Origin: a virus
Lineage: Duplodnaviria; Caudoviricetes
IMG/VR virus record: IMGVR_UViG_3300033144_000144
Coordinates: 1 to 61,941 of that record
Length of the DNA: 61,941 bases
Strand: one strand, 5' to 3'
This document shows, piece after piece, positions 2,667-20,069 of the stretch (its first letter is position 1; each line of letters opens with the position of its first letter). The notes under the pieces were generated by a model. It made no database searches. It was not told where the DNA came from and worked only from the letters and a program-made list of their open reading frames with translations. The translations under genes were made by a program, and so were the position numbers.

Positions 2667-4321
2667 CTTTCAGCTCTTTTATGTGTAACGATTGCATTAG
2701 TAGTTAAGATAGTTGTGGCTACACTAATAGCATTCATCAATGCGTTCTTAGTTACTTTGGCTGGATCTACAATCCCCATCTCAATCATATCTCCATACTC
2801 TTGTTTAAACACATCGTATCCTTTTGTATTGAATGCTGGGTATGGTGCATTTTCGAAATCACCAAAAGCTCTCTCATCATATATCTCTTTCAATACTTCA
2901 TCTTCATCTAATCCAGCGTTCTTAAGTATTTGTTGAAGTGGTGCTTTAAGTGCTTCTCGAATAATCATTTCAGTAGCCTGGTCTTCTGCAATAGTTTCAT
3001 CTGTTGCATCTTCACAATTACAACCGAAGTGACGGTGTATATCATATAAGAATAATCCGCCTCCAGGCAGAATGCCTTCTTGTAGTGCGGAACGCACTGC
3101 ACACACCGAGTCATCGACTCGGTCAAATTTTTCTTTTTGCTCTATATCTGAGTTAGCTCCAACATATATACAACCAATACCTCCAGCCAAACTCGCAATC
3201 CTTTCGTTGATAAACTCTTTCTCATGTTTAGCTGTGGTATTATCTTGTTGAACTTTTAGTTCTGCAATTCTATTAGTTATCTCTTCTGACTGATCTCCAT
3301 CTTTTATAATTACTGTATTTGTTTTACCTACAATAATCTTATCTGCAAAACCTAAATCGTCTGCTGTGATTAAAGATAAATCATCTCCAGTCTTTTCAGA
3401 AAAGTATTTAGCCCCAATAGCTAAAGCAATATCTTGCATAAGCTCGTGAGTCTTATATCCAAATGAAGGCGGTAGTATATTACAGAACTTCAAACCATTA
3501 CGAGCAACATTAGCTGCCAGTGTATTAATTACATTACCAGAACATGTTCCTATGATAAGTAACTTTTCTCCAGCATTGATAATTGGTTTTAGAATATTTT
3601 CGATTTGAAGGATATTGTTAATCTCAGTATCACATACTAATACTCTAACACCCTCCATGATACACTCATCTTTTCTCTGGTCATTAATAAACAATGGTGA
3701 AGTATAACCTCTATCGATTCGAATACCGTTGGTAACTTCAGAGTAAGTTTCATCTGTTTGAGATCTTTCAACTGTTACTATTCCATCTTGACCAACTTGC
3801 TTATATGCATCAGCAATAATTTTACCTAAATCAAAATCATTGTTAGCAGAGATAGAAGCAATGTGATATAACATATCATCGGTAACCTCAACTGAGCGTT
3901 CTTTAATCTTTTTAAGAATAATTTCAGAGTCATACTTAATTCCATTAATTACCTCCCACACATTGTGATGAGGTTGTATCCATTTTAGTCCAGCCTTTAC
4001 AAAAGCCTCAGCTAATACAATAGCAGTAGTTGTTCCATCTCCAGCTACATTAGCTGTTTTCTCAGATGCTTGTTTAATCATTCTAACCGCAAGGTTCTCA
4101 ATTGGATCATCGAGATGAATTGACTTAGCTACAGTAACTCCATCTTTGGTAACTGTTAATCCTTGTAAATGGTCTGGTGATTCTACCAACACTGTTTTAC
4201 CTCGTGGCCCAAGTGTTGATTTAACTGCTTTAGAGATTTTAGTTATTCCGCTGATTAACTTCTCTCTTGCCTCCTTATCAAAAGTAAGGTCTTTTGGAAT
4301 GTATCCTTGTTCTGCATTCAT
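2663..4321 (-). CDS. groEL: Chaperonin GroEL
   Basis: TLGPRG, VTKDGVTVAK, AGDGTTT, DRGYTSPLFI, EGILPGGG, GIVDPAKVT motifs. Confidence 0.97.
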   Translation of the reverse strand: MNAEQGYIPKDLTFDKEAREKLISGITKISKAVKSTLGPRGKTVLVESPDHLQGLTVTKDGVTVAKSIHLDDPIENLAVRMIKQASEKTANVAGDGTTTAIVLAEAFVKAGLKWIQPHHNVWEVINGIKYDSEIILKKIKERSVEVTDDMLYHIASISANNDFDLGKIIADAYKQVGQDGIVTVERSQTDETYSEVTNGIRIDRGYTSPLFINDQRKDECIMEGVRVLVCDTEINNILQIENILKPIINAGEKLLIIGTCSGNVINTLAANVARNGLKFCNILPPSFGYKTHELMQDIALAIGAKYFSEKTGDDLSLITADDLGFADKIIVGKTNTVIIKDGDQSEEITNRIAELKVQQDNTTAKHEKEFINERIASLAGGIGCIYVGANSDIEQKEKFDRVDDSVCAVRSALQEGILPGGGLFLYDIHRHFGCNCEDATDETIAEDQATEMIIREALKAPLQQILKNAGLDEDEVLKEIYDERAFGDFENAPYPAFNTKGYDVFKQEYGDMIEMGIVDPAKVTKNALMNAISVATTILTTNAIVTHKRAER

Positions 4322-4353
4322 AAGAAATATATTTAATTTAAATTAATTATGGG

Positions 4354-4361
4354 CAAAGATA
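4354..4361 (-). promoter_or_regulatory. -7 element of groEL-groES promoter
   Basis: CAAAGATA on + strand. Confidence 0.7.
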
Positions 4362-4375
4362 CTAAAAAAATATTT

Positions 4376-4479
4376 GTGTCAATGTGTCAATGTTTTTTTA
4401 TTTATAGACTATATATATTCTATTACTATATATTATTTTTTTATTTATAAAATATTAGATTTCGTTGACACTTCGACAC
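4376..4479. repeat. Origin-like element copy A: tandem GTGTC(A/G)A arms in inverted orientation around an AT-rich core
   Basis: GTGTCAAtGTGTCAA-N12-TATAGACTA...TTGACACtTCGACAC; second copy at 13840-13942. Confidence 0.7.
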
Positions 4480-4550
4480 TAATTAATATAAGTAACTATA
4501 AATGAGTAACTTACAAAGTGTCAATAAAAACAGGGCTTAACACTGTATAT

Positions 4551-4584
4551 AAAAAAAAGAGGCTACCTCTCAGTAAACCTCTCT
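4551..4584 (-). terminator. Possible intrinsic terminator
   Basis: AGAGG...CCTCT stem next to an A-run (U-tail on - strand), after ORF 4609..4809. Confidence 0.5.
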
Positions 4585-4608
4585 TACAACAGAACAAATG
4601 GGATTTCT

Positions 4609-4809
4609 TTAGAACTTAAATATCTTCTTATGTTCTTTACGCATCTCAGCTCTTTCAATACCGTCAGCGATTTTATCTATTTCATATTGCTTCTTCATTT
4701 GATTTCTATACATCGAAGCCTCTTGGATTCCAGTCATACCAACTGGGCGATCATTAATTAATCTTCCGTTCTTAATTCTTAATCCGTCCATGTCTGCGTA
4801 CTTTTTCAT
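4609..4809 (-). CDS. Hypothetical protein
   Basis: 66-aa ORF with -7 element at 4825-4832 and a downstream terminator. Confidence 0.7.
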   Translation of the reverse strand: MKKYADMDGLRIKNGRLINDRPVGMTGIQEASMYRNQMKKQYEIDKIADGIERAEMRKEHKKIFKF

Positions 4810-4944
4810 ATCGTTTATTTTTTACAAAGATATAAAAATTTTTTAGATGTCTGGGGGCTGAGGGTTATATGTCATCATACATTGCGTTGTGCGTTTAGAA
4901 AACAAAAAAAAATTTGCACCCCCCCCTAACCAAATCGGTTCACC

Positions 4945-5086
4945 TTGTCCAAATGTTTTGGCTTTTTTTCCAGCTGGGCTGGATGGCTACCTCTGTCCAG
5001 TTAGATAGGTGTACCAGTTACCCTTGTCCAGTTGTCGTTGTCCAGTTAAGTTGTCCAGTTAAGCTACCTTCCCCCATCTGACCAGT
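4945..5086 (+). repeat. Iteron-like direct repeats (T/C)TGTCCAGTT
   Basis: Copies at 4993, 5024, 5038, 5051; variants at 4945, 5011, 5078; in the non-coding gap between divergent arms. Confidence 0.8.
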
Positions 5087-5258
5087 AAGGATAAGACAAA
5101 TGCTCACTTTGAATAGACAAAGAGAGATGTCTTATAACCCCTGACCGAGAGCCATAATGCGTAAACAAAACAAAAAAGTTATCAACAATCTAACTGACTG
5201 ATAATCACTGACATTACATATTGAATTTGTATGGGACAATGTATTCAACAAGTATTTG

Positions 5259-5290
5259 TTTGTCTATGTCATAGAATTAGACTATCTTTA
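5259..5290 (+). promoter_or_regulatory. Early promoter TTTG-N20-TATCTTTA
   Basis: Near-consensus Bacteroidota -33/-7 ahead of first early ORF. Confidence 0.65.
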
Positions 5291-5325
5291 CACTGAATTT
5301 AAACATTAAACAAACACAAATTATT

Positions 5326-5583
5326 ATGAAAAATTACGAAAAAGCATTCGAAGAATTGAGAAAATTGAACATAGCTGTCCAGCGTAACTGGGGCGATGAC
5401 AAGGTACACGAAGACAGAGGTTACTTCTGGATATGGTGCGAAGGCATCACTGATGAAACCAGTTATCACATCGACTACTGGAACAGATTCGAAGGTAGCG
5501 AAAAGGTTCAGTCGATACTGGAGAAGCACGACCTATATTTCGAATGGGAGAATAGTGCAGTAGCATCAATCTACGATGCATAA
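5326..5583 (+). CDS. Early hypothetical protein (FEWEN motif)
   Basis: 85-aa ORF with AU-rich leader. Confidence 0.8.
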   Translation: MKNYEKAFEELRKLNIAVQRNWGDDKVHEDRGYFWIWCEGITDETSYHIDYWNRFEGSEKVQSILEKHDLYFEWENSAVASIYDA

Positions 5584-5584
5584 A

Positions 5585-5638
5585 GGCAATCTGATGAGAC
5601 CTGAATGGTCGAAACTGGAGGAGACTCCAGTCATTGTC
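5585..5638 (+). ncRNA. Hammerhead ribozyme type I (HH1), predicted cleavage after C5632
   Basis: Stem I GGCAAT/ATTGTC; CTGATGA; stem II GACC-TGAAT-GGTC; GAAA; stem III CTGGAG-GAGA-CTCCAG; GTC triplet. Confidence 0.93.
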
Positions 5639-5662
5639 AAACAAAATTTAAACGAAATTATT

Positions 5663-5899
5663 ATGAATTTAATTGCAAAAAATCCCAAGCATCAAACGAT
5701 GGTTAACCGATGTGTTAACTGGTTAAAAAAGTACAATGAGTACAACACACAAAGAGACATTGCTGATGGCAATGGAGATGAAAAGCAGTATGCTAAATGG
5801 GACAAGAAATGCATCAAAGCATTCGATATGTACCTTGAGTACCTATCTGAATTACCGAAGAGAGAGGTAACTCAAATCGAGAAATCAGAATTATATTAA
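5663..5899 (+). CDS. Early hypothetical protein
   Basis: ORF 5576..5899; likely start MNLIAK at 5663 because the upstream portion is HH1. Confidence 0.7.
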   Translation: MNLIAKNPKHQTMVNRCVNWLKKYNEYNTQRDIADGNGDEKQYAKWDKKCIKAFDMYLEYLSELPKREVTQIEKSELY

Positions 5900-5919
5900 T
5901 CACTAAAAATCACACAGAA

Positions 5920-6492
5920 ATGAACACACAAAATTTGAATTTAATCGCAACTCAGCTGAAGGTAACTCAGCTGGTGAACCAGTACCACAAAGTGTACAAA
6001 GCTACACTGGAGAAGAATCTGAACGATAAACCAATCAAGAACGATGGCTGGGATTCTATGCAAGAGAGAGAAGAACAAGTATCTTACAAGTTAGGTAACA
6101 AGTTTTATCCGAAGTTAAGAATGATACTGGAAGAGGTAGGTATCTCAAATGATATGGCTACCACCATCGGACATCTGTTACTGGACGAGCCAAGTAAGGA
6201 ACACTGGACAATAATCAAGTCTTTCTTTGAGCCAATTGAATTCATCAGTGAGGATGAAATCAATAGATCTATAGAAAAGCATAATGGGTACACTAACATT
6301 GAGACCTACAGACTATGTCTGATACTGGATAACATTGTTATGAAACATAATGCTATGCACTACTTTTTCGAGTACCTCCAGCAAGGAGAATTCACTGAAA
6401 AAGACTACCATAAAATTAACTGGAACGAGGTTAATGAGAGGTATTTAGAACAACATATGGATATTAACTATGATAACATCCTGAATCGATAA
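5920..6492 (+). CDS. Early hypothetical protein
   Basis: 190-aa ORF. Confidence 0.75.
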   Translation: MNTQNLNLIATQLKVTQLVNQYHKVYKATLEKNLNDKPIKNDGWDSMQEREEQVSYKLGNKFYPKLRMILEEVGISNDMATTIGHLLLDEPSKEHWTIIKSFFEPIEFISEDEINRSIEKHNGYTNIETYRLCLILDNIVMKHNAMHYFFEYLQQGEFTEKDYHKINWNEVNERYLEQHMDINYDNILNR

Positions 6493-6555
6493 ATACTCTG
6501 ATGAGCAACACTGGAAGGTGGCGAAACTTCCCCAGTCAGCTGGGGGAGTCAGTAT
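6493..6555 (+). ncRNA. Hammerhead ribozyme type I (HH2), predicted cleavage after C6550
   Basis: ATACT/AGTAT; CTGATGA; stem II GC[AA]CACT-GGAA-GGTGGC; GAAA; stem III CTTCCCCAG-TCAG-CTGGGGGAG; GTC. Confidence 0.9.
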
Positions 6556-6573
6556 AAACTAAATAATATAAAA

Positions 6574-7011
6574 ATGGGATACAACACAGACTGGAATGGG
6601 TACTTGGAGACAAGTCGACCATTCACCGAAAGCGAGATTAATCAGTGGACAGAGATGGCTGAAACAAGGCACGATAGCGAGTACCATTATGGTAACTCAC
6701 AAAGGGAATACCCATCAATATGGTGCGACTTTGAAATCAGTAATCAGGAAGGTACTGGAGTCTTCCAGTGGAACGGAAGTGAAAAAACCTATGAAGGTTT
6801 AGGATGGATTAAATACTTCCTTAACTGGACAATGAAACTTGATGAACCAATGGTGGTGAAAGGTAGGTTTGATTGGGAAGGTGAAGAAGAAGGTGATGAA
6901 GGAGTAGTTATAGTAGAACGCAAAGATAGAGACTACATCATCCATATTGGTGAGGTAGAAAAACATTACCACAAAGTGATGAAGGCACATACTCTGATGA
7001 GACTTAAGTAG
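6574..7011 (+). CDS. Early hypothetical protein (MGYxTDW...WNGxEKxY...GEEExD)
   Basis: 145-aa ORF bracketed by HH2 and HH3. Confidence 0.8.
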   Translation: MGYNTDWNGYLETSRPFTESEINQWTEMAETRHDSEYHYGNSQREYPSIWCDFEISNQEGTGVFQWNGSEKTYEGLGWIKYFLNWTMKLDEPMVVKGRFDWEGEEEGDEGVVIVERKDRDYIIHIGEVEKHYHKVMKAHTLMRLK

Positions 7012-7043
7012 TCGAAACTACTCCAGCTGGAGTAGTCAGTATG
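6988..7043 (+). ncRNA. Hammerhead ribozyme type I (HH3), predicted cleavage after C7037
   Basis: CATACT/AGTATG; CTGATGA; GACT-TAAGT-AGTC; GAAA; CTACTCC-AGCT-GGAGTAG; GTC; overlaps last codons of 6574..7011. Confidence 0.93.
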
Positions 7044-7064
7044 AATTTAAATAATAACACACAA

Positions 7065-7553
7065 ATGAAAAAGTACATTGTAATAGATACTTGGAATGGT
7101 GAAGGTTACTCCGACCAAAATGGAGTAGATACCAAGCAGTTTCAGTATAAAAAGTCAGCATTTAAATATGCTTATGACAGAACCTTAAGTAATGCTGATG
7201 GAGATGCAGATTTAGTTTGCAGATATTCAGATGAAGAATCTGATAGTGAACACTGGTCACCAGTTAAAAGAGATGCTGATGGAGATGGATTCTATTGGGA
7301 TACCTATGATGATAATTCAGGTAGCTATCAAGTTTATGAGATTAAAGATGCATATGCAGTTATGATACTATGCAACACAAACGAAGTTTATATGCTTACT
7401 GAAGATGAGTACATCGACAGAAAAAATGAATTGTATGAAGATTATGCTTCAGCTGAATATACAGATGAAATATATGAAGAAGAAAATGGTGATTCTTTTT
7501 ATCCAGCAATAGATGATTATGACTACCAATTTAGATTAATTAAAAACCTATAA
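7065..7553 (+). CDS. Acidic early hypothetical protein
   Basis: ORF 7041..7553; start 7065 (MKKYIV) or 7041. Confidence 0.75.
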   Translation: MKKYIVIDTWNGEGYSDQNGVDTKQFQYKKSAFKYAYDRTLSNADGDADLVCRYSDEESDSEHWSPVKRDADGDGFYWDTYDDNSGSYQVYEIKDAYAVMILCNTNEVYMLTEDEYIDRKNELYEDYASAEYTDEIYEEENGDSFYPAIDDYDYQFRLIKNL

Positions 7554-7555
7554 AA

Positions 7556-7738
7556 ATGAAAAAGACAATAATAATATTCTCTGCAATAATCACATTGAGT
7601 AGTTGTGGAATGATGAACAAGTTATCTGATGAGCAATTACATCAAAGAAATAAAATTGATTATGAGATGTCAAAACTTTGGAATGAATACCAAGTAAAGA
7701 ACGACTCTTTACTAATTGAATACTATAAAATTAAATAG
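7556..7738 (+). CDS. Small lipoprotein
   Basis: MKKTIIIFSAIITLSS-C signal peptide II/lipobox. Confidence 0.75.
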   Translation: MKKTIIIFSAIITLSSCGMMNKLSDEQLHQRNKIDYEMSKLWNEYQVKNDSLLIEYYKIK

Positions 7739-7740
7739 AT

Positions 7741-8079
7741 ATGGAAATGAAAATTATGAGATTAAGCGAAGTAACATTTGAGATGTTACAGAACCAGTAT
7801 CCTGAATGCTACAAATCAAAATTCGGCAGAGGTGTAACAATGCCAAATGCAGATGACTCACAAAGAGTAATATCTAATGAGGATGCGTTAACACACTACA
7901 AAGAATTAATGATTGGCATGTGGGGAGATGTAATGATTCAATTAAATCCTGAAAGTTTCACTTGGTTTGACCGAGTACAGATTCAGGATGCAAACTTCAA
8001 AGATGCACGAAGAAGATTTACAGAACACAAAGCCGAAGTCATTGCTGACTGGAGCAAAAAAGGATACAATACCGATTAG
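7741..8079 (+). CDS. Early hypothetical protein
   Basis: 112-aa ORF. Confidence 0.75.
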   Translation: MEMKIMRLSEVTFEMLQNQYPECYKSKFGRGVTMPNADDSQRVISNEDALTHYKELMIGMWGDVMIQLNPESFTWFDRVQIQDANFKDARRRFTEHKAEVIADWSKKGYNTD

Positions 8080-8173
8080 TTTGTGTGTGAAGAAGGTTTA
8101 ATTCACCTTCCTACCTTAACCTCAATGCGTAAATGCATTGGGGATTTGGTGGTAGAGGGATGTTCCTCGCAAA
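8080..8173 (+). ncRNA. Candidate structured RNA (multi-stem junction), family not recognised
   Basis: TTTGTG/CGCAAA closing; GAAGGT/ACCTTC; CTACC/GGTAG with internal loop and CCTCAATGCG/TGCATTGGGG; GAGGG/TCCTC. Confidence 0.55.
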
Positions 8174-8189
8174 ATTAAATTAAATTATT

Positions 8190-8648
8190 ATGGCAAAAAG
8201 AATTGCAAATTTCAATGTATCTGACCACTTATCCAGTCAGATAGAATACTTTCAGAAAAACAAAGGAGAGTATCAAGAAAACTTTACCAATGGATTTGAT
8301 GACAGAAGTTTAGATCTAATTACTGACAAAGAGATACAAGATTATTTCTTTTCAGCTGATAGTGAAGAACACCATTATCACTGGGAAGACTTCCTCTATG
8401 ATTTAGAAGAAGAATTCAGTCAGTACATAGGTAAAGTAGTTTCTGTTGAAGGAAGAAATATGGGCTGGAATAATAAAACTGGCTACAAGACATTTCAAAT
8501 TGAATCTACTGAAGATATCTTCAGACAGATAGCACCTGAATGTGACTTGACTTTTTCAATAGACAAAGTAGATAACAAAGAATATGAGGTGGTCATAGCA
8601 CATCACGACTCACCAATGGGAGAAAATTATAACTTAAAAATTAAATAG
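8190..8648 (+). CDS. Early hypothetical protein (GRNMGW...HHDSPMGE)
   Basis: 152-aa ORF. Confidence 0.8.
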   Translation: MAKRIANFNVSDHLSSQIEYFQKNKGEYQENFTNGFDDRSLDLITDKEIQDYFFSADSEEHHYHWEDFLYDLEEEFSQYIGKVVSVEGRNMGWNNKTGYKTFQIESTEDIFRQIAPECDLTFSIDKVDNKEYEVVIAHHDSPMGENYNLKIK

Positions 8649-8650
8649 AT

Positions 8651-8890
8651 ATGGCAATTAAAAGACATCCAAAAGACAGAGGATATGGTTACAAGAAATC
8701 ATATAACTATGAGCAATCGATAGCTGAACACGAAGATTTAGAACCAACAAAAGAAGACTGGGCAAAGTTAAGGGAGAGAATGCCTTCACTGATATGTGAG
8801 TCACTAATCTTTGGATTTGGGGCTGGTACATTCCTTCTGATTATAGCTTCGATAATCATCGGAGTATTGAACCTATTACACACATTATAA
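8651..8890 (+). CDS. Small membrane protein
   Basis: C-terminal hydrophobic segment LIFGFGAGTFLLIIASIIIGVL. Confidence 0.7.
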   Translation: MAIKRHPKDRGYGYKKSYNYEQSIAEHEDLEPTKEDWAKLRERMPSLICESLIFGFGAGTFLLIIASIIIGVLNLLHTL

Positions 8891-8899
8891 ACACAAAAG

Positions 8900-8931
8900 T
8901 TTGGTTATTTAATATATTTAAACTATTATTG
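8900..8931 (+). promoter_or_regulatory. Promoter TTTG-N20-TATTATTG
   Basis: Near-consensus -33/-7, intergenic. Confidence 0.55.
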
Positions 8932-8948
8932 TACAAAATTTAAACATT

Positions 8949-9185
8949 ATGACAGAGCAACAATACCATTCTCTTACAAGATATCTTGCAGAGGAAACTG
9001 CACACCATAAGTTTGGTGAGGATGCAGTACACTACAACTCCAGCACTGGAGAACACGAATTCACACATCACGCTGAAAAATTTATTAGAGATGAAATTAG
9101 TAATCTTGAATTTCTGTTTGAGGTGTATGATGTGAAACCTAAATTAAGTTTAATTAAAAGAATAAAAAAATGGCTGAAAAATTAA
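8949..9185 (+). CDS. Hypothetical protein
   Basis: 78-aa ORF. Confidence 0.7.
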   Translation: MTEQQYHSLTRYLAEETAHHKFGEDAVHYNSSTGEHEFTHHAEKFIRDEISNLEFLFEVYDVKPKLSLIKRIKKWLKN

Positions 9186-9538
9186 TTGACAAAGTAGATG
9201 ATGGATTCAACTACTTTAGTTACCGATTAGAAGAATTAAAGACAGATGATGTGTACTACATAAAAGCATTTATGAAGTACATTGAATCTCTTGAATCAAA
9301 ACTATCTAAAGTTAGTAAAGACTACAGAAACACATTAAATGATTATCAGTCACCTATGTGGCTGATGACATACAATGATGTTGTTGGAGGATCTACACAC
9401 GAGGTAGTTACAAATGATCCCCAGTTATATCTCAAGAGACTTAACAGAGACAGAGTAGCTGATGGTGAATTACCTGATACGATGGATGAATTCACCAAGA
9501 CCTTAATCAAATTAGAAACCTTTAAAAAATCAAAATAA
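9170..9538 (+). CDS. Hypothetical protein
   Basis: 122-aa ORF. Confidence 0.7.
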   Translation: MAEKLIDKVDDGFNYFSYRLEELKTDDVYYIKAFMKYIESLESKLSKVSKDYRNTLNDYQSPMWLMTYNDVVGGSTHEVVTNDPQLYLKRLNRDRVADGELPDTMDEFTKTLIKLETFKKSK

Positions 9539-9801
9539 TGAGAGAAGTAAAGATTAGTAGTCGTACTATATACTCCAAGACTTGTGAGATATATATTGAA
9601 ATTCCAAAAGACATACCTCAAGATAAAGTATCAGACTGGTTATTCGAAAACGAAATAAAGTGGACTGATGCTATCGACAATGCAAATGGCGAAGCAGTTT
9701 TAGACTTCGGATTTGGATTAGATGATGGTATGGAAGATAAGAATTCTGAACACGAGATGAGATTTGACATCGTAGGTGAAAACTATGGTGGACATATTTA
9801 A
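9538..9801 (+). CDS. Hypothetical protein
   Basis: 87-aa ORF, TAATG coupling. Confidence 0.75.
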   Translation: MREVKISSRTIYSKTCEIYIEIPKDIPQDKVSDWLFENEIKWTDAIDNANGEAVLDFGFGLDDGMEDKNSEHEMRFDIVGENYGGHI

Positions 9802-9857
9802 ATACTCTGATGAGCCAATGAGATTTTGGCGAAACTGGTAGCAATACCAGTCAGTAT
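9802..9857 (+). ncRNA. Hammerhead ribozyme type I (HH4), predicted cleavage after C9852
   Basis: ATACT/AGTAT; CTGATGA; GCCAA-TGAGATT-TTGGC; GAAA; CTGGTA-GCAA-TACCAG; GTC. Confidence 0.94.
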
Positions 9858-9875
9858 AAATTAAATAAAATCGTT

Positions 9876-10604
9876 ATGCCTAATTATGTTTATTGTGGGA
9901 TATCTCCCACTAAAGATTTGACTCCTGAACAAATCGAGATAGCAAAAAAGATTCAGGAAGCTGGAGGATTATGTAGATATTATGTACCAAGACCAGCTGA
10001 ATTAGATAAGACTACTTCACCAACAAGAGTAGTTAGTGATGAAGAGTATCACAAAGCAATGAAACTCAATGAGACTGAAAAATTTAAATCTTATCCTATT
10101 ACAAGGGAGATGCAAAAGTCTTTATTGAAAGCACATAACTTTGACAATTGGTACGATTGGTCACACTATCACTGGGGAACAAAGTGGGGAGATTGTGACT
10201 TCGATATAGACTGGAATAAAGATGGAACTCACTTCGAAATGAGGTTTGATACTGCTTGGTCACCAATTGCTTTAGAAATTATTATTATGTTTGCTAAAGA
10301 TTTCCCTGATTTCACTTACTGGTGGGAAGAAGAACAAGGATGGGGAGGAGAATGCGACTACACTAATGGAGAAGAGTCAAGATATATGGAGTATGATATT
10401 CCAAACTGGACTGATGAAGAAGAAGTAGAGATCTCGCATAAAGGAAAGCTAATAGTTACTACGCTGACTAAACTTGCAGACCAGCATCCTAACTATGATA
10501 ATGGTACTGGATACTATTTAGATTATGGTCACGAATATGCTGGTAAGACAAGAATCGAAGCACTGGAATATGTGATGAAAAATTATGAGAAAGAAAATGT
10601 TTAG
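9876..10604 (+). CDS. DUF1281/YubB-type ferredoxin-like domain protein
   Basis: MPNY...NWYDW...WGTKWG...FDTAWSP signature. Confidence 0.8.
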   Translation: MPNYVYCGISPTKDLTPEQIEIAKKIQEAGGLCRYYVPRPAELDKTTSPTRVVSDEEYHKAMKLNETEKFKSYPITREMQKSLLKAHNFDNWYDWSHYHWGTKWGDCDFDIDWNKDGTHFEMRFDTAWSPIALEIIIMFAKDFPDFTYWWEEEQGWGGECDYTNGEESRYMEYDIPNWTDEEEVEISHKGKLIVTTLTKLADQHPNYDNGTGYYLDYGHEYAGKTRIEALEYVMKNYEKENV

Positions 10605-10893
10605 GTTAATTAGACAAGAGAAGCTGAAGTCGAAACCTGATGTAGATTATATCAGGTTTCTTCAGCAACTTACCGACAGAGAAAATGTTAAAGCATTCCT
10701 ATCCGAATATAAGCAAACTAAACATTTAGAAAAGCTACGCAAAGCCAATGTAATTGAATTAAATGACTACTTTAATTATAGTGGTAAGCGAGAAGAGAAC
10801 GGAAGAATAACAAAGAAACCAATTGAATATCAGGATAAAAAAACTATCACGATAATCAATGATATGAGTAAATATAAATTTAATAAAAATTAG
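10585..10893 (+). CDS. Hypothetical protein
   Basis: 102-aa ORF. Confidence 0.6.
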   Translation: MRKKMFRLIRQEKLKSKPDVDYIRFLQQLTDRENVKAFLSEYKQTKHLEKLRKANVIELNDYFNYSGKREENGRITKKPIEYQDKKTITIINDMSKYKFNKN

Positions 10894-10894
10894 T

Positions 10895-11176
10895 ATGAAA
10901 AAAACCACTGAAGAATTAATCAAAGAAGTAGGGAGAGAAGTAGTTATGTTGCTACTTGAAAAGAACAAAGCGTATGGCGATACTGCCAACAAGCCCCCTA
11001 AAATATTTTCAAAGCTATCAGCAAAGGAAGGTATCCTTGCAAGGATCGATGACAAGTTAAGTAGGATCAAGCAAGTAGGTATCAATGACAAAACAGAAGA
11101 CACTTTGCTGGATCTTATTGGCTACCTTATATTGTATAGAGTACAATGTAAGATGGAAGAAATTAAAAAAAGTTAA
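10895..11176 (+). CDS. DUF1599 / nucleotide-modification-associated domain 1 protein
   Basis: KNKAYGD...RIDDKLSRI...EDTLLDLIGYLIL. Confidence 0.8.
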   Translation: MKKTTEELIKEVGREVVMLLLEKNKAYGDTANKPPKIFSKLSAKEGILARIDDKLSRIKQVGINDKTEDTLLDLIGYLILYRVQCKMEEIKKS

Positions 11177-11182
11177 ACATAA

Positions 11183-11214
11183 TTTGCTCAAGTAATACTA
11201 AAGTATTATCTTTG
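11183..11214 (+). promoter_or_regulatory. Consensus Bacteroidota promoter TTTG-N20-TATCTTTG
   Basis: Perfect -33/-7 match. Confidence 0.8.
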
Positions 11215-11331
11215 ACAACTAATAAAAATTAAGGTGTGTAATGGTAGTAGCGTAATTATCTACAACACACTTAATAAGAGAGAAATCATTTGCGAACCAA
11301 ACTCTTGCCTTATTTTTCTAAATTCAATTAA

Positions 11332-11625
11332 ATGAAAAAAAATATTTTCGATGCGTATGCGTTAGCAATCGCAAAGCAATTTCATCTGTCACTCGATCAG
11401 ATGTTTACCAAGACTAAAAGAAGAGAGGTAGTAGATGCAAGACAAATGTTATACTATCTCTGTATGGAAAGACCAATTCGTATATCCTACATACAAAGAT
11501 TTATGGAGGATGCTGGATTAAGCGTATGCCACTCTACTATTATACATGGTTACAAGAAAGCAAAGGAGACTATAGATAAAGATAAAGACTTTAAAGATAT
11601 AGTAACTCAACTTCAGGATGTATAA
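11332..11625 (+). CDS. Stand-alone DnaA C-terminal (domain IV) HTH protein
   Basis: TKRREVVDARQMLYYL...HSTIIHG matches DnaA_C signature. Confidence 0.8.
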   Translation: MKKNIFDAYALAIAKQFHLSLDQMFTKTKRREVVDARQMLYYLCMERPIRISYIQRFMEDAGLSVCHSTIIHGYKKAKETIDKDKDFKDIVTQLQDV

Positions 11626-12025
11626 TTTAGAAGACATATTTACTCAAGCCGAAGCTGATGCATCAGGGATACAGATTACAATGCTCAATGGGAAAAGCAT
11701 TGTAAACTATGGTGTAAAGATTCAGAAGTTTCCATCCAAGATCGAGATACTTAATTGTGGTCGAAGTGGAGATTACTTTAACGAATGCAACGATGATGAG
11801 TATAAACTTTTCTTCAAGTACGGATGGAGAGAAGGTGCATTAAGATTATCATTATCCAATTATAAACGGAAGTTAGATATGATTGAAGAAAAAATCAGGA
11901 CTGAAGTTAACACAAGGAAAAATGATAAGCACATTCAACGACTTAAAACGAGTCGAGAAAAATTATTAATTAAATATAGTAACAGAAATCGTAAATTAAA
12001 TTTATTAAACAATGGGACAAAGTAA
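11618..12025 (+). CDS. Hypothetical protein
   Basis: 135-aa ORF. Confidence 0.7.
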   Translation: MYNLEDIFTQAEADASGIQITMLNGKSIVNYGVKIQKFPSKIEILNCGRSGDYFNECNDDEYKLFFKYGWREGALRLSLSNYKRKLDMIEEKIRTEVNTRKNDKHIQRLKTSREKLLIKYSNRNRKLNLLNNGTK

Positions 12026-12629
12026 GAAAAACAATTTCAAGGATTTATCTTCCATATCTATTGCAGATAAAACAGATAAGAAAGGAAAGTTTAGCTATTT
12101 ATCTTGGGCTACTGCTTGGTCGATGATCAAGACAGAACATCCTGATGCACAAAGAACAGTGTATGAATCTGAACATACTGGACTTAACTTCTTTACAGAT
12201 GGTAAGTCAGCATATGTGAAGGTAGGTATTACTATTGATGGTATGGAACACATAGATTACCTACCAGTAATGGACTATCGTAATAATTCTATTCCAATTG
12301 ATAAGGTAACATCAATGGATGTAAACACTGCAATTCAAAGATCAACTGCAAAAGCTATTGCTATGCATGGATTAGGTTTATCATTATGGATTGGTGAAGA
12401 CACAATGATGGTGGCTAAACCTACTGCACAAGCAGTGGCTAAAACACCAGTGCCACCAAAGAAAATTACCACAATGGAATTAAATATTGGTGATGAGAAT
12501 TGGGATAAAGTTATTAAGTACATAGTAGCTAATAAACAATTAGGGCTACCTAAAATTGTAAAGCAACTGGAAGCCAAGTACAAGATAAAAGCAGTAGTAA
12601 AAAAGGAATTATCAAAACATATTAAATAA
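12012..12629 (+). CDS. Sak3/DUF1071 single-strand annealing recombinase
   Basis: FSYLSWATAW...LPVMDYRN...NTAIQRSTAKAIAMHGLGL. Confidence 0.85.
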   Translation: MGQSKKNNFKDLSSISIADKTDKKGKFSYLSWATAWSMIKTEHPDAQRTVYESEHTGLNFFTDGKSAYVKVGITIDGMEHIDYLPVMDYRNNSIPIDKVTSMDVNTAIQRSTAKAIAMHGLGLSLWIGEDTMMVAKPTAQAVAKTPVPPKKITTMELNIGDENWDKVIKYIVANKQLGLPKIVKQLEAKYKIKAVVKKELSKHIK

Positions 12630-13387
12630 TGAAGTTTACTACTAAACAATGGAAAGAAAGCATTGAGAAGCTAAAAGATGATTCTCAATATTACGGAGAC
12701 TTTGGTAAACAATACTTATCAAACTCTGATATCATAACTCTACTTAATGATCCTAAAAATTTCAGGAAAGAAAAGGAGATGACCAAAGCTATGCTACTTG
12801 GAAGATACTTCCATACTGCAATGTTAGAACCTAACAAACTACATAGCGAAGAGTACATTCCTATTGATGCATCAAGTCGTAGCACTAAAAAGTATAAAGA
12901 AGAAATTCTACAATACAACAGACCGATAATGATGCTGAAAAAGGAAATGGAAGAGATAGATGTGGCTATCAATACAATGAAAGCTAACCTTGAATTCTAT
13001 GATGCAATCTATCATCCAAAGAATGAGTATGAAGTACCAGCTATCCAAGAGGTAGAAGGTATGATGTGGAAAGGTAAAGCTGATATTGTAGCTGAAGATA
13101 TTCTTATTGATCTGAAGACAACTTCAAACATCAAAGATTTTAAATACTCGGCTCGTAAGTATAATTACGATAGTCAAGCGTATCTTTACCAGCAATTCTT
13201 TGGTAAGCCACTGGTATTCTATGTGGTAGATAAATCAACATATGAATTAGGAATCTATTATCCATCTCAAACTTTCTTGGAGTATGGAAAAGACAAAGTA
13301 GAGAGAGCAATAGAAGTGTATAACAAATTCTTTAAAGAAAATGCAGAAGAAAATATTGAATCTTATATCATTAAAGAAACTCTTTAA
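12629..13387 (+). CDS. PD-(D/E)XK exonuclease (RecE/ExoVIII-like, DUF3799)
   Basis: LSNSDI...GRYFH...KGKADI...DLKTT...YDSQAYLY. Confidence 0.85.
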   Translation: MKFTTKQWKESIEKLKDDSQYYGDFGKQYLSNSDIITLLNDPKNFRKEKEMTKAMLLGRYFHTAMLEPNKLHSEEYIPIDASSRSTKKYKEEILQYNRPIMMLKKEMEEIDVAINTMKANLEFYDAIYHPKNEYEVPAIQEVEGMMWKGKADIVAEDILIDLKTTSNIKDFKYSARKYNYDSQAYLYQQFFGKPLVFYVVDKSTYELGIYYPSQTFLEYGKDKVERAIEVYNKFFKENAEENIESYIIKETL

Positions 13388-19995: not shown

Positions 19996-20069
19996 GGACG
20001 AGTAGCTCAATTGGATAGAGCATTAGCCTTCTAAGCTAACGGTTGAAGGTTCGAGTCCTTCCTCGTTCA
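19996..20069 (+). tRNA. tRNA-Arg (anticodon TCT)
   Basis: Acceptor GGACGAG/CTCGTTC; D arm AGCTCAATTGGATAGAGC; anticodon arm TTAGC-CT TCT AA-GCTAA; T arm GAAGG-TTCGAGT-CCTTC; no encoded CCA. Confidence 0.95.

Follow-up and report, generated by a model that had tools for sequence, protein, structure and literature searches.

The early region of this phage genome raises the question of why three of its four clustered hammerhead ribozymes carry the same stem I, and whether this identity would allow the RNAs that they release to be closed into circles or rather reflects how the ribozymes were spread. The window, that is the whole stretch of 61,941 nucleotides that was analysed, is an IMG/VR record of a complete virus genome with terminal repeats. 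It belongs to a 61.9-kb marine phage whose hosts are likely Flavobacteriales, as suggested by metagenome bins and two single-cell assemblies.

Four type I hammerheads in an early operon

The pattern CTGATGA-N6-30-GAAAC-N6-34-GTC matches the 61,941-base window four times, compared with 0.10 matches expected; all four lie on the + strand within 4.3 kb and none of 100 shuffled windows reached this number. A three-stem detector with minimum lengths of 4 bp for stem I, 2 bp for stem II and 3 bp for stem III returned exactly these four sites, HH1 to HH4 (Table 1), and gave no detection across 20 shuffles. All four possess the core CUGAUGA-G...C-GAAA-C...G-UC, followed by an A that is paired with the U preceding the core. 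This corresponds to C3 U4 G5 A6 N7 G8 A9, G12 A13 A14, A15.1-U16.1 and H17 of the hammerhead core, which is surrounded by three helices with the 5' and 3' ends in stem I. Judged from their sequences, HH1 to HH4 are genuine type I hammerhead ribozymes, for which self-cleavage is predicted. Re-reading of the sequence confirmed the original prediction that HH2, HH3 and HH4 share an ATACT/AGTAT stem I, while their stems II and III are unrelated to each other, and that HH1 has a different stem I, GGCAAU/AUUGUC. HH3 additionally contains a sixth stem I pair, C6988-G7043. In minimum-energy folds, stems II and III form in all four ribozymes, but stem I forms in HH1 only and is absent in HH2 to HH4, as the AUACU/AGUAU helix is too weak.

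Table 1. Coordinates of the RNA elements, predicted cleavage products and genes discussed in the text.
Feature	Position	Strand	Details
HH1, type I hammerhead	5585..5638	+	stem I GGCAAU 5585-5590 / AUUGUC 5633-5638, 6 bp; predicted cut after C5632
HH2, type I hammerhead	6493..6555	+	stem I AUACU 6493-6497 / AGUAU 6551-6555; predicted cut after C6550
HH3, type I hammerhead	6988..7043	+	stem I AUACU 6989-6993 / AGUAU 7038-7042; predicted cut after C7037
HH4, type I hammerhead	9802..9857	+	stem I AUACU 9802-9806 / AGUAU 9853-9857; predicted cut after C9852
Predicted 487-nt cleavage product	6551..7037	+	AGUAU leader of 23 nt, ORF 6574-7011, HH3 body at 3' end
Predicted 2815-nt cleavage product	7038..9852	+	eight ORFs and RNA element 8104-8188
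ORFs of the 2815-nt unit, first four of eight	7065-7553, 7556-7738, 7741-8079, 8190-8648	+	
ORFs of the 2815-nt unit, last four of eight	8651-8890, 8949-9185, 9170-9538, 9538-9801	+	
Unclassified covarying RNA element	8104..8188	+	inside the predicted 2815-nt unit
Helix P_a of this element	8111-8115 with 8148-8152	+	
Hairpin P_b of this element	8120-8128 with 8135-8143	+	
Hairpin P_c of this element	8155-8158 with 8165-8168	+	
Sak-type (Rad52-like) single-strand annealing protein	12012..12629	+	Pfam PF06378, E = 2.6e-32
PD-(D/E)XK-like nuclease (DUF3799)	12629..13387	+	Pfam PF12684, E = 1.1e-21

An Rfam search with HH1 to HH4 gave no hammerhead match at the gathering score. The top-scoring model for all four was the RAGATH-1 hammerhead, RF03152, with 34.9 bits for HH3 (the best of the four), 30.3 for HH2, 24.6 for HH1 and 17.5 for HH4 against a gathering score of 56.3, and RF00163 (clan CL00010) matched HH1 only, with 19.7 bits against a 34-bit threshold. 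HH1 to HH4 resemble RAGATH-1 in their 5-bp stem I, their CUGAUGAG...CGAAAC...GUC core and their long stem III, but differ from it in that stem II is a full hairpin of 4-5 bp. The upstream hairpin of the RAGATH-1 model is clear only before HH1, where the RF03152 alignment places a clean 5-bp hairpin at 5563-5581; the alignment of HH3 requires a 33-nt insertion and the corresponding stem of HH2 has just 3 bp. The RAGATH-1 name is not mentioned in the main text of PMC5737381. Among 115 distinct matches to a pattern that specifies the core and stem I only, a stem II of at least 4 bp is present in 87%, compared with 8.8% when the interior is shuffled, and a stem III of at least 6 bp in 90%, compared with 2.2%. 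The sixth stem I pair of the AUACU-type hammerheads covaries across 146 copies (A-U 79, G-C 27, U-A 15, G-U 5, C-G 1, unpaired 19).

The four ribozymes sit at gene boundaries. HH1 begins 2 nt past the TAA stop codon of ORF 5326-5583, and HH2 and HH4 begin immediately after the TAA stop codons of ORF 5920-6492 (6490-6492) and ORF 9538-9801 (9799-9801), respectively; the next start codons are found at 5663, 6574 and 9876. The 5' half of HH3 lies within ORF 6574-7011, the TAG stop codon of which (7009-7011) is located in loop II. The distance from the cut site to the next start codon is 23-30 nt in the window, and among the AUACU-type copies the first start codon follows 23-28 nt past the cut in 101 of 146 and 30-35 nt past it in 33. 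Position 7065 was preferred over 7041 as the start of the first ORF of the 2815-nt unit, by analogy with relatives. The hammerheads bound blocks of 2, 1 and 8 ORFs, and no terminator-like site was found on the + strand between 4300 and 11400. The single-gene block encodes a protein of 145 amino acids without a Pfam family (ORF 6574-7011). The order of the cassettes varies among relatives; in L010 and L018, a hammerhead is followed by homologues of the genes at 7077 and 6574. Further downstream, the phage encodes its own Sak recombinase and a nuclease, which is likely the exonuclease partner of the annealing protein (Table 1).

A common stem I and shuffled stems II and III

The exact AUACU/AGUAU pattern is found in 25 viral stretches, in 14 genome-bin stretches (13 of them Bacteroidota) and in at least 120 metagenome stretches. 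Hammerheads of this type number at least 182 in at least 160 loci with the three of the window included, leaving at least 179 in at least 159 other contigs, which are mostly phage relatives or Flavobacteriales bins. In an unselected viral sample, AUACU/AGUAU is absent from all 120 distinct type I hammerheads; stem I is 6 bp long in 57 of these, 5 bp in 18 and at most 7 bp. As a comparison sample, we used 87 loci of relatives, which were picked by the recombinase rather than by the ribozyme, the Sak recombinase having at least 588 related stretches in viral contigs. These loci contain 41 hammerheads, all on the operon strand and upstream of the recombinase, with the stem I classes AUACU (10), GUUAA (10), AUUAA (9), UUACU (3), AUAAU (3) and six singles. 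The class follows the clade, with AUACU at 73-82% recombinase identity and AUUAA and GUUAA at 55-67%. By this distribution, the common stem I marks a single hammerhead lineage and is not peculiar to this genome. No hammerhead is present in many close relatives for which 10 kb of upstream sequence is available (L297, L303, L311, L313), and the modules are therefore dispensable.

It had been predicted that stem I stays identical within genomes yet varies among related phages, and the comparison points in this direction: stem I is identical in 14 of 25 within-locus pairs, but only in 122 of 795 between-locus pairs. Within genomes, stems II and III are identical in just 2 and 1 of the 25 pairs, respectively. 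Per-site identity within loci is 0.85 for stem I, 0.37 for stem II and 0.45 for stem III. Plain ancestry alone does not account for the retention of stem I within genomes with almost no retention of stems II and III. Furthermore, 50 types of stem II and 86 types of stem III make up 117 combinations; in six cases, two stem II types have at least two stem III types in common, the graph of the combinations contains 5 independent cycles and one stem III occurs with 9 different stems II. Stem II types associate with the sequence upstream of the ribozyme, stem III types with that downstream of it. The HH2 stem II module recurs in L005 and L029 with one base different, and that of HH4 recurs in L027 and L029 without any change. 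The shuffled combinations argue for DNA recombination inside the ribozyme, although this is based on modules of 12-20 nt and some of the stems III counted as different are separated by point changes only. Of the suggestion that the cassettes circularise or recombine, the second half thus holds at the DNA level, as shuffling of stems II and III, and the first is unsupported.

We propose that HH1 to HH4 are probably boundary modules of an early + strand operon, which process the transcript into cassette mRNAs and belong to a lineage spread by DNA recombination. Each module would consist, in order, of a stop codon, a 5-6 bp A/U-rich stem I, the core, two stable hairpins, the cut, an A/U-rich leader of 23-30 nt and a start codon. 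Cleavage would cut the polycistronic transcript into cassette mRNAs, a role suggested earlier for hammerheads (PMC3088659, PMC6765202). Each cassette mRNA would start with the same 5'-OH AGUAU leader, regardless of the upstream gene, and its 3' end would be the folded hammerhead body, bearing a 2',3'-cyclic phosphate. DNA recombination with crossover points within the ribozyme would have carried the lineage from one related phage to another as well as to further sites in the same genome, as a result of which stems II and III assort independently. The long G+C-rich stems II and III differ among the copies of one genome. Stem I is likely uniform because of its position next to the stop codon, because the next mRNA begins with it and because it is too short to act as a repeat.

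A second explanation, to which we give a clearly smaller though real chance, is that the asymmetry stems from selection on stems II and III, that is, tandem hammerheads must differ in their long G+C-rich hairpins. Identical hairpins of neighbouring copies would pair wrongly in the RNA, and as long direct repeats they would let the annealing protein delete the cassette between them; a 5-bp A/U stem is too short for either problem and would hence keep its ancestral sequence. In line with this, identical modules persist between genomes, such as the HH4 stem II or the stem III with several partners, whereas stem II identity within a genome (0.37) is no higher than between genomes (0.38). The phage also encodes the Sak annealing protein together with a nuclease, and stem I is capped at 5-7 bp in 120 of 120 unselected hammerheads. 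On the other hand, both stems are somewhat more alike within than between genomes in the unselected sample (0.54 versus 0.41 for stem II and 0.51 versus 0.30 for stem III), which indicates that such diversification is not general. Selection of this kind is compatible with boundary modules that process the transcript, and the two explanations do not exclude each other.

Possible circularisation of the released cassettes

In the original prediction, the 5' AGUAU of a released cassette folds onto the AUACU of its own 3' hammerhead and the ends are sealed again, through the hammerhead reaction running backwards or through an RtcB-type ligase acting on the 5'-OH and the cyclic phosphate. This would yield mRNA circles of 487 and 2815 nt, or cassettes that are skipped or shuffled. 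The fragment sizes and junction strings given for these products are correct. So is the geometry: HH2, HH3 and HH4 have identical stem I strands, the 5' AGUAU can in principle pair with the 3'-end AUACU and the cleaved ends could rebuild one hammerhead. The sharing of stem I within genomes is also far above that of stems II and III in two independent samples, and a one-gene cassette between two matching hammerheads is conserved, as a homologue of ORF 6574-7011 is flanked by two AUACU hammerheads approximately 500 nt apart in L011/L296 and L021. Loop II was not found to pair with the flanks in a copy-specific manner that would forbid swaps of the 3' strand, and retrozymes and viroids provide known cases of units between hammerheads that form circles (PMC7761336; PMC6765202).

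We nevertheless regard circularisation as very improbable. The AUACU/AGUAU duplex is worth -1.6 kcal/mol, and at the level of secondary structure the closing pairs have a probability of 0.24-0.34% in the cleaved 487-nt RNA, compared with 19-27% for the native stem in the precursor. Neighbouring hammerheads have a matching stem I in just 9 of 18 cases in the relatives and 11 of 31 in the unselected sample, and in the window itself the stem I of HH1 differs from that of the other three. In 28 of 146 AUACU-type copies, the 3' product begins with AGUAUC-loop-GAUAC, which would sequester the 3' strand after cleavage, and the 2815-nt unit contains a second conserved RNA that stands where relatives have hammerheads. 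A search of the phage for the RtcB, RNA_ligase and T4 Rnl1 families gave no match (for Rnl1 without a positive control), and RtcB was found in 0 of 10 Flavobacteriales bins with hammerheads of this type, bins that are incomplete and linked to the host indirectly. None of the holders listed for the window stretch is on record as RNA, and the contig ends of the collected loci never coincide with a cut site. With so weak a duplex, 0.3% closure and no RtcB found, the proposed mechanism is unsupported. Nor is it a candidate for an undescribed system, since the idea of spliced or circular products from clustered hammerheads was already in print in 2011: Perreault et al. sought both for clustered phage hammerheads and state, as data not shown, that neither was detected (PMC3088659). 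Most likely, the interchangeability of the RNA ends is real geometry that arises as a by-product rather than a device for making circles.

That the hammerheads are inactive relics or selfish passengers without a role in phage gene expression is the least probable reading of all, for although they are missing from many close relatives and score under the Rfam thresholds, their core is perfectly conserved and their stems are kept despite wholesale sequence change in more than 100 distinct copies, and they occupy the operon strand without exception, at a strictly kept position behind a stop codon and 23-35 nt ahead of a start codon.

Related systems and a second RNA element

The closest known arrangement is that of Perreault et al. 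(2011), who found hammerheads clustered in prophages and phages, proposed that they process long transcripts and raised spliced or circular products (PMC3088659). As in those clusters, the hammerheads of the window are closely spaced on the same strand, with single genes or short runs of unrelated genes between them. In contrast to them, HH1 to HH4 are all of type I with an A/U-rich stem I of 5-6 bp, and come from a single lineage of marine Flavobacteriales phages in which stem I is fixed. The available portion of that article (PMC3088659) describes neither a stem I common to the copies of one genome nor a reassortment of stems II and III, as seen here. Similar to retrozymes and viroid-like circles, the phage units lie between two hammerheads of the same orientation and would have 5'-OH and 2',3'-cyclic phosphate ends (PMC7761336, PMC5680766). 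Retrozyme and viroid-like units, as presented in these sources, are non-coding and highly self-paired, their ends are held together, and they have long flanking repeats or are true multimers, with closure by a host ligase in either case. The phage units are instead mRNAs, the 487-nt one with an ORF of 145 amino acids, which share only 13 + 8 nt, and their closing stem has a predicted occupancy of 0.3%, with no ligase found in the phage or in 10 bins.

The RNase III sites of T7 and the promoter-stem-loop cassettes of T4 are likewise short conserved structured elements between early genes, which cut or delimit cassette mRNAs and also mark sites of cassette exchange between related phages. These elements depend on host RNase III or on promoters, whereas the element described here is a predicted self-cleaving ribozyme with recombination junctions inside it. 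Type I hammerheads are also present in the 5' UTRs of fungal and plant RNA viruses, in which self-cleavage makes the translated 5' end (PMC13725137). Both stand just upstream of an ORF; however, those are eukaryotic RNA viruses with cap-independent translation, and this is a polycistronic operon of a bacterial DNA phage.

The second conserved RNA of the 2815-nt unit, at 8104-8188, matched no family in an Rfam search. It is composed of the helix P_a and the hairpins P_b and P_c (Table 1), and an A/U-rich leader separates P_c from the start codon at 8190. In one relative, an element of this type is located 20 nt upstream of the MGYNTDWNG gene, at the place where the window has HH2; going by this position, it replaces the hammerhead at the orthologous site.

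Hammerheads at the boundaries of early-gene cassettes

The window, a complete virus record that comprises 61,941 bases, has direct terminal repeats and a G+C content of 35% and carries a full hammerhead core in four + strand elements, HH1-HH4, which span 5585-9857. The pattern CTGATGA-N6-30-GAAAC-N6-34-GTC matched the window four times compared to 0.10 matches expected, and four matches were reached in none of 100 shuffles; a detector requiring three stems returned the same four elements and none in 20 shuffled windows. Re-reading of the sequence bore out the coordinates, the fragment lengths of 487 and 2815 nt and the junction strings of the original prediction, and confirmed that stem I is common to HH2-HH4 but different in HH1, while stems II and III show no sequence relationship among the four. 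In minimum-energy folds, stems II and III formed in all four hammerheads and stem I in HH1 only. None of HH1-HH4 reached the Rfam gathering score, the best model being RAGATH-1-hammerhead with 34.9, 30.3 and 24.6 bits versus a gathering threshold of 56.3. HH1-HH4 belong to a known kind, the clustered phage hammerheads.

Features of the window that bear on the hammerhead cassettes
Feature	Position	Strand	Basis or remark
HH1	5585-5638	+	stem I GGCAAT/ATTGTC, differs from HH2-HH4
HH2	6493-6555	+	stem I ATACT 5' of core, AGTAT 3' of cut; sequence reading
HH3	6988-7043	+	stem I as HH2; sequence reading
HH4	9802-9857	+	stem I as HH2; sequence reading
Structured RNA element	8104-8188 (flanks 8080-8189)	+	covarying, in no Rfam family; covariance model
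Sak-type (Rad52-like) single-strand annealing protein	12012-12629	+	Pfam, E = 2.6e-32
PD-(D/E)XK-like nuclease (DUF3799)	12629-13387	+	Pfam; adjoins annealing protein
tRNA gene	19996-20069	+	72.5 bits; sole Rfam match at gathering thresholds in the window

The hammerheads are placed between the stop and start codons of exchangeable early-gene cassettes. HH2 and HH4 directly follow the stop codon of the preceding ORF, and HH1 starts 2 nt after such a codon. HH3 departs from this layout, as its 5' half is covered by the ORF at 6574-7011, whose TAG stop codon lies within loop II. The distance from the cut to the next start codon is 30, 23, 27 and 23 nt for HH1, HH2, HH3 and HH4, respectively, with the start at 7065 picked by analogy with relatives. 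No Pfam family was found for seven cassette ORFs, and a blastn search of the INPHARED phage collection with window positions 5000-12000 gave no match. For the ORF that follows HH4 (9876-10604, +), Pfam gave a weak match (E = 1.8e-5, 25 bits with a cut-off of 22.8 bits) to DUF1281_C, which is a ferredoxin-like domain found in Api92-like proteins.

No terminator-like sites were found on the + strand in 4300-11400, which is weakly compatible with a single long early transcript. Sigma-70-like promoters were not enriched (25 found versus 29.3 expected), and the Bacteroidetes-type motif TTG-N17-21-TAnnTTTG occurs within the searched region at 8986 and 11184 only. The sequence TGTCCAGTT is present in four exact copies inside 67 nt (4994-5060, +), approximately 270 nt 5' of the first early ORF (5326), and in only two more exact copies elsewhere in the window; this cluster could represent operator sites or iterons.

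The ribozyme fold is conserved across the lineage. A pattern in which only the core and stem I were fixed gave 115 distinct matches, 87% of which had a stem II of at least four contiguous pairs and 90% a stem III of at least six, compared to 8.8% and 2.2%, respectively, with shuffled interiors. The sixth stem I pair, which was free in the search pattern, covaries among 146 copies (A-U 79, G-C 27, U-A 15, G-U 5, C-G 1, unpaired 19), its 5' partner being the base that ends the stop codon (TAA or TAG). In 120 unselected hammerheads, among the matches listed, stem I comprised 6 bp in 57 cases, 5 bp in 18 and 7 bp at most. The first start codon follows the cut by 23-28 nt in 101 of the 146 copies and by 30-35 nt in a further 33. 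For copy-specific pseudoknots between loop II or III and the flanking 20-25 nt, observed and permuted values were about the same and none was assigned. In 28 of the 146 copies, the cut is followed by AGUAUC-AUAA-GAUACC, for instance in the loci L010 at 7119 (-), L008 at 9229 (-) and L018 at 9563 (+) of other phages. The downstream GAUAC repeats the 5' strand of stem I, so that the 3' product is able to fold its own end after cleavage. This hairpin, which is absent from HH1-HH4, may trap the cleaved state or protect the 5' end.

Stem I as a lineage signature and reassortment of stems II and III

The shared stem I is not particular to the window genome. The exact ATACT/AGTAT hammerhead pattern was found in 25 other viral stretches, in at least 120 metagenome stretches and in 14 stretches from genome bins, which by title comprise 11 Flavobacteriales and one each of Weeksellaceae, Bacteroidetes and Dehalococcoidales. 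Among the matches listed, the three-stem detector identified 199 hammerheads in 160 loci including the window, 182 of them with the ATACT/AGTAT stem I and 153 of these distinct by sequence and flanks; this stem I was present in none of the 120 distinct type I hammerheads listed for the unselected viral sample. The viral contigs that bear it are mostly relatives of the window phage, with replication-module proteins 45-82% identical.

As the inner five stem I pairs are preset by the search pattern, their conservation has to be judged in a sample picked independently of the ribozyme. We therefore used an alignment of the annealing protein, which matched at least 588 stretches; 80 of these were kept and combined with 8 others, and 87 loci were examined. 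These contained 41 hammerheads, each of them located on the operon strand 5' of the recombinase. Their stem I classes were ATACT (10), GTTAA (10), ATTAA (9), TTACT (3), ATAAT (3) and six found once each. Many close relatives lacked a hammerhead even though 10 kb of their upstream sequence was present. The class tracks relatedness, with ATACT found at 73-82% recombinase identity to the window and ATTAA or GTTAA at 55-67%.

The original prediction also suggested testing whether stem I stays the same within genomes and varies between relatives, and this holds as a loose rule. In the deduplicated recombinase sample, the same five stem I pairs were shared by 14 of 25 within-locus and 122 of 795 between-locus pairs, but only 9 of 18 neighbouring hammerheads matched, so that about half of neighbours mismatch, HH1 being one example. 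Among the matches listed for the unselected sample, stem I was identical in 18 of 61 within-locus, 49 of 5192 between-locus and 11 of 31 adjacent pairs. The observed sharing was never reached in label shuffles, which ignore relatedness. Within loci of the recombinase sample, stem I had a per-site identity of 0.85, compared to 0.37 in stem II and 0.45 in stem III, and 14, 2 and 1 of the 25 pairs, respectively, were exactly identical; the corresponding per-site values in the unselected sample were 0.69, 0.54 and 0.51 (among the matches listed). Since stem I exceeds stems II and III within loci in both samples, the asymmetry seen in the window is general: tandem phage hammerheads retain stem I and diverge in stems II and III.

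Stem II and stem III modules have undergone reassortment. Among the matches listed, 50 distinct stem II sequences and 86 of stem III form 117 combinations in the 182 ATACT-type copies, and a single stem III occurs together with nine stems II. At least two stem III types are shared within each of six stem II pairs, a four-gamete violation, and the graph of combinations contains five independent cycles; two separate origins of an identical module of 13-20 nt are improbable. Among pairs of copies that agree in stem II and differ in stem III, 21% have similar upstream flanks (baseline 2.7%); among those that agree in stem III and differ in stem II, 6.6% have similar downstream flanks (baseline 0.9%) and only 4.1% similar upstream flanks (all among the matches listed), as expected if junctions lie between stems II and III. 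The HH4 stem II recurs unchanged in the loci L027 and L029, and that of HH2 recurs with one base changed in L005 and L029. Gene order also differs: the window reads HH2, 6574 ORF, HH3, 7077 ORF, whereas L010 and L018 have a hammerhead followed by the 7077 homologue and then the 6574 homologue. With modules reassorted and gene order rearranged, the proposal that the cassettes recombine is supported at the level of DNA exchange, and the phage has its own Rad52-like annealing protein, which together with the adjoining nuclease forms a recombination module that could drive the shuffling of cassettes and ribozymes. The common stem I marks the lineage and is held uniform while the rest of the ribozyme reshuffles by DNA recombination.

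In DNA contigs of four sequencing runs aligned to 4300-11300, the only joints were 4455-4642, 4524-4639 and 8179-8244; none connected two hammerhead sites, and these four samples thus give no sign of inter-hammerhead cassette loss. A contig from another sample (run X7) matches only the HH1 core (5581-5615), followed by a different stem III and the same ATTGTC after the cut, which makes it a relative's version of HH1 with stem III swapped.

Proposed processing and hypothetical re-joining of the cassette RNAs

We propose that HH1-HH4 would process the mRNA at the cassette boundaries, with each gene receiving a standard 5' leader, and consider this the most likely function of the hammerheads. Beyond processing, cassettes with matched ends, a 5'-OH AGUAU end and a hammerhead 3' end, might be re-joined by the reverse hammerhead reaction or by an unrecognised ligase in infected Flavobacteriales, yielding either permuted operon RNAs or circular translatable one-gene mRNAs. 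Under selection for such re-joining, stem I would remain uniform within a genome and stems II and III would be free to differ. The products would include a 487-nt circle in the window and circles of approximately 500 nt in two relatives. We regard such re-joining as very improbable. The AUACU/AGUAU duplex contributes only -1.6 kcal/mol, and the five pairs that would close the cleaved 487-nt RNA have probabilities of 0.24-0.34%, compared to 19-27% for native HH3 stem I in the precursor, both calculated for secondary structure without tertiary contacts or proteins. In the 28 relatives with the AGUAUC-loop-GAUAC hairpin, the 3' product start is predicted to capture the released stem I strand. The phage has no match to the RtcB, RNA_ligase or T4 Rnl1 families, the Rnl1 search having been run without a positive control, and RtcB was found in none of ten Flavobacteriales bins with an AUACU hammerhead, the bins being incomplete and the host link indirect. 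No contig ends at cut sites, a possible hint of RNA ends, were present among the collected loci, and a look-up of sequencing runs that contain 5300-10300 listed none of RNA.

The circular products had been put forward as an undescribed system, but the idea is already present in Perreault et al. (2011; PMC3088659), which reports that spliced or circular products of clustered phage hammerheads were looked for and none detected. The circular-RNA idea is neither new nor supported; overall we give it very little weight, and on present evidence no new circular-RNA system is revealed. In a 2019 review (PMC6765202), what phage hammerheads do is still counted as an open question, and the processing of polycistronic transcripts is mentioned. 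On the stem I and recombination ideas, only these two publications emerged among the papers searched; the hammerhead alignments of PMC3088659 or the motif lists of PMC5737381 may already include this hammerhead lineage or the 8104-8188 element.

The purpose of phage hammerhead clusters has been under question since 2011, and the large family described here, with at least 588 related viral-contig stretches and at least 120 metagenome contigs carrying the same hammerhead, makes it tractable. Stem I is uniform per lineage, stems II and III are reshuffled, and another RNA element replaces the hammerhead at one orthologous site, providing experimental access to the role of ribozymes in phage gene expression and to conserved RNA modules as recombination joints.

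A second structured RNA between HH3 and HH4

A candidate new processing RNA was also gained from the analysis. Between HH3 and HH4 there is a single long non-coding gap (8080-8189), and it contains an element that is 80-97% identical at the nucleotide level in 22 further loci (E < 1e-10), while the ORFs beside it share a protein identity of only 34-55% in most relatives. The element has a folding z of -3.6 and consists of a 5-bp helix around a 9-bp hairpin, connected via an asymmetric internal loop, followed by a small hairpin, an A/U-rich leader and the start codon at 8190. Its conserved strand has the sequence GGGG-WUUU-NGUNG-UA. An outer pairing, UUGUGUG/CGCACAA, can be seen by eye in close copies.

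A covariance model of 84 positions gave 112 matches at E <= 0.01 across 365 sources, with up to three per locus (operon) and nearly always on the operon strand; the 120 unselected loci L030-L149 gave no match. In 62 distinct copies, 94% of cells were paired in an alignment fitted to the covariance model, with two-sided changes in 16 of 18 pairs; the observed values were reached in none of 500 shuffles, and slid controls gave 43-50%. In an independent MAFFT alignment, RNAalifold recovered the two hairpins, and the manual structure was 82% paired versus 41-51% when slid. Rfam searches gave no family at E <= 10, and none at E <= 5 for seven small loci.

Since, in L010, the element lies 20 nt 5' of the MGYNTDWNG gene, the gene that HH2 precedes in the window, it occupies a position equivalent to that of a hammerhead. 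Phage T7 uses host-nuclease processing sites in its transcripts. The element may likewise mark a site where a host nuclease processes the RNA, or it may be a self-cleaving RNA of an unclassified type; a cut here would rule out a 2815-nt circle. In several relatives (L321 4159-7531, L010 5960-7890 and L352 715-4588), hammerheads and elements of this type alternate within one operon at distances of approximately 0.4-1.8 kb, an arrangement that resembles two interchangeable kinds of punctuation.
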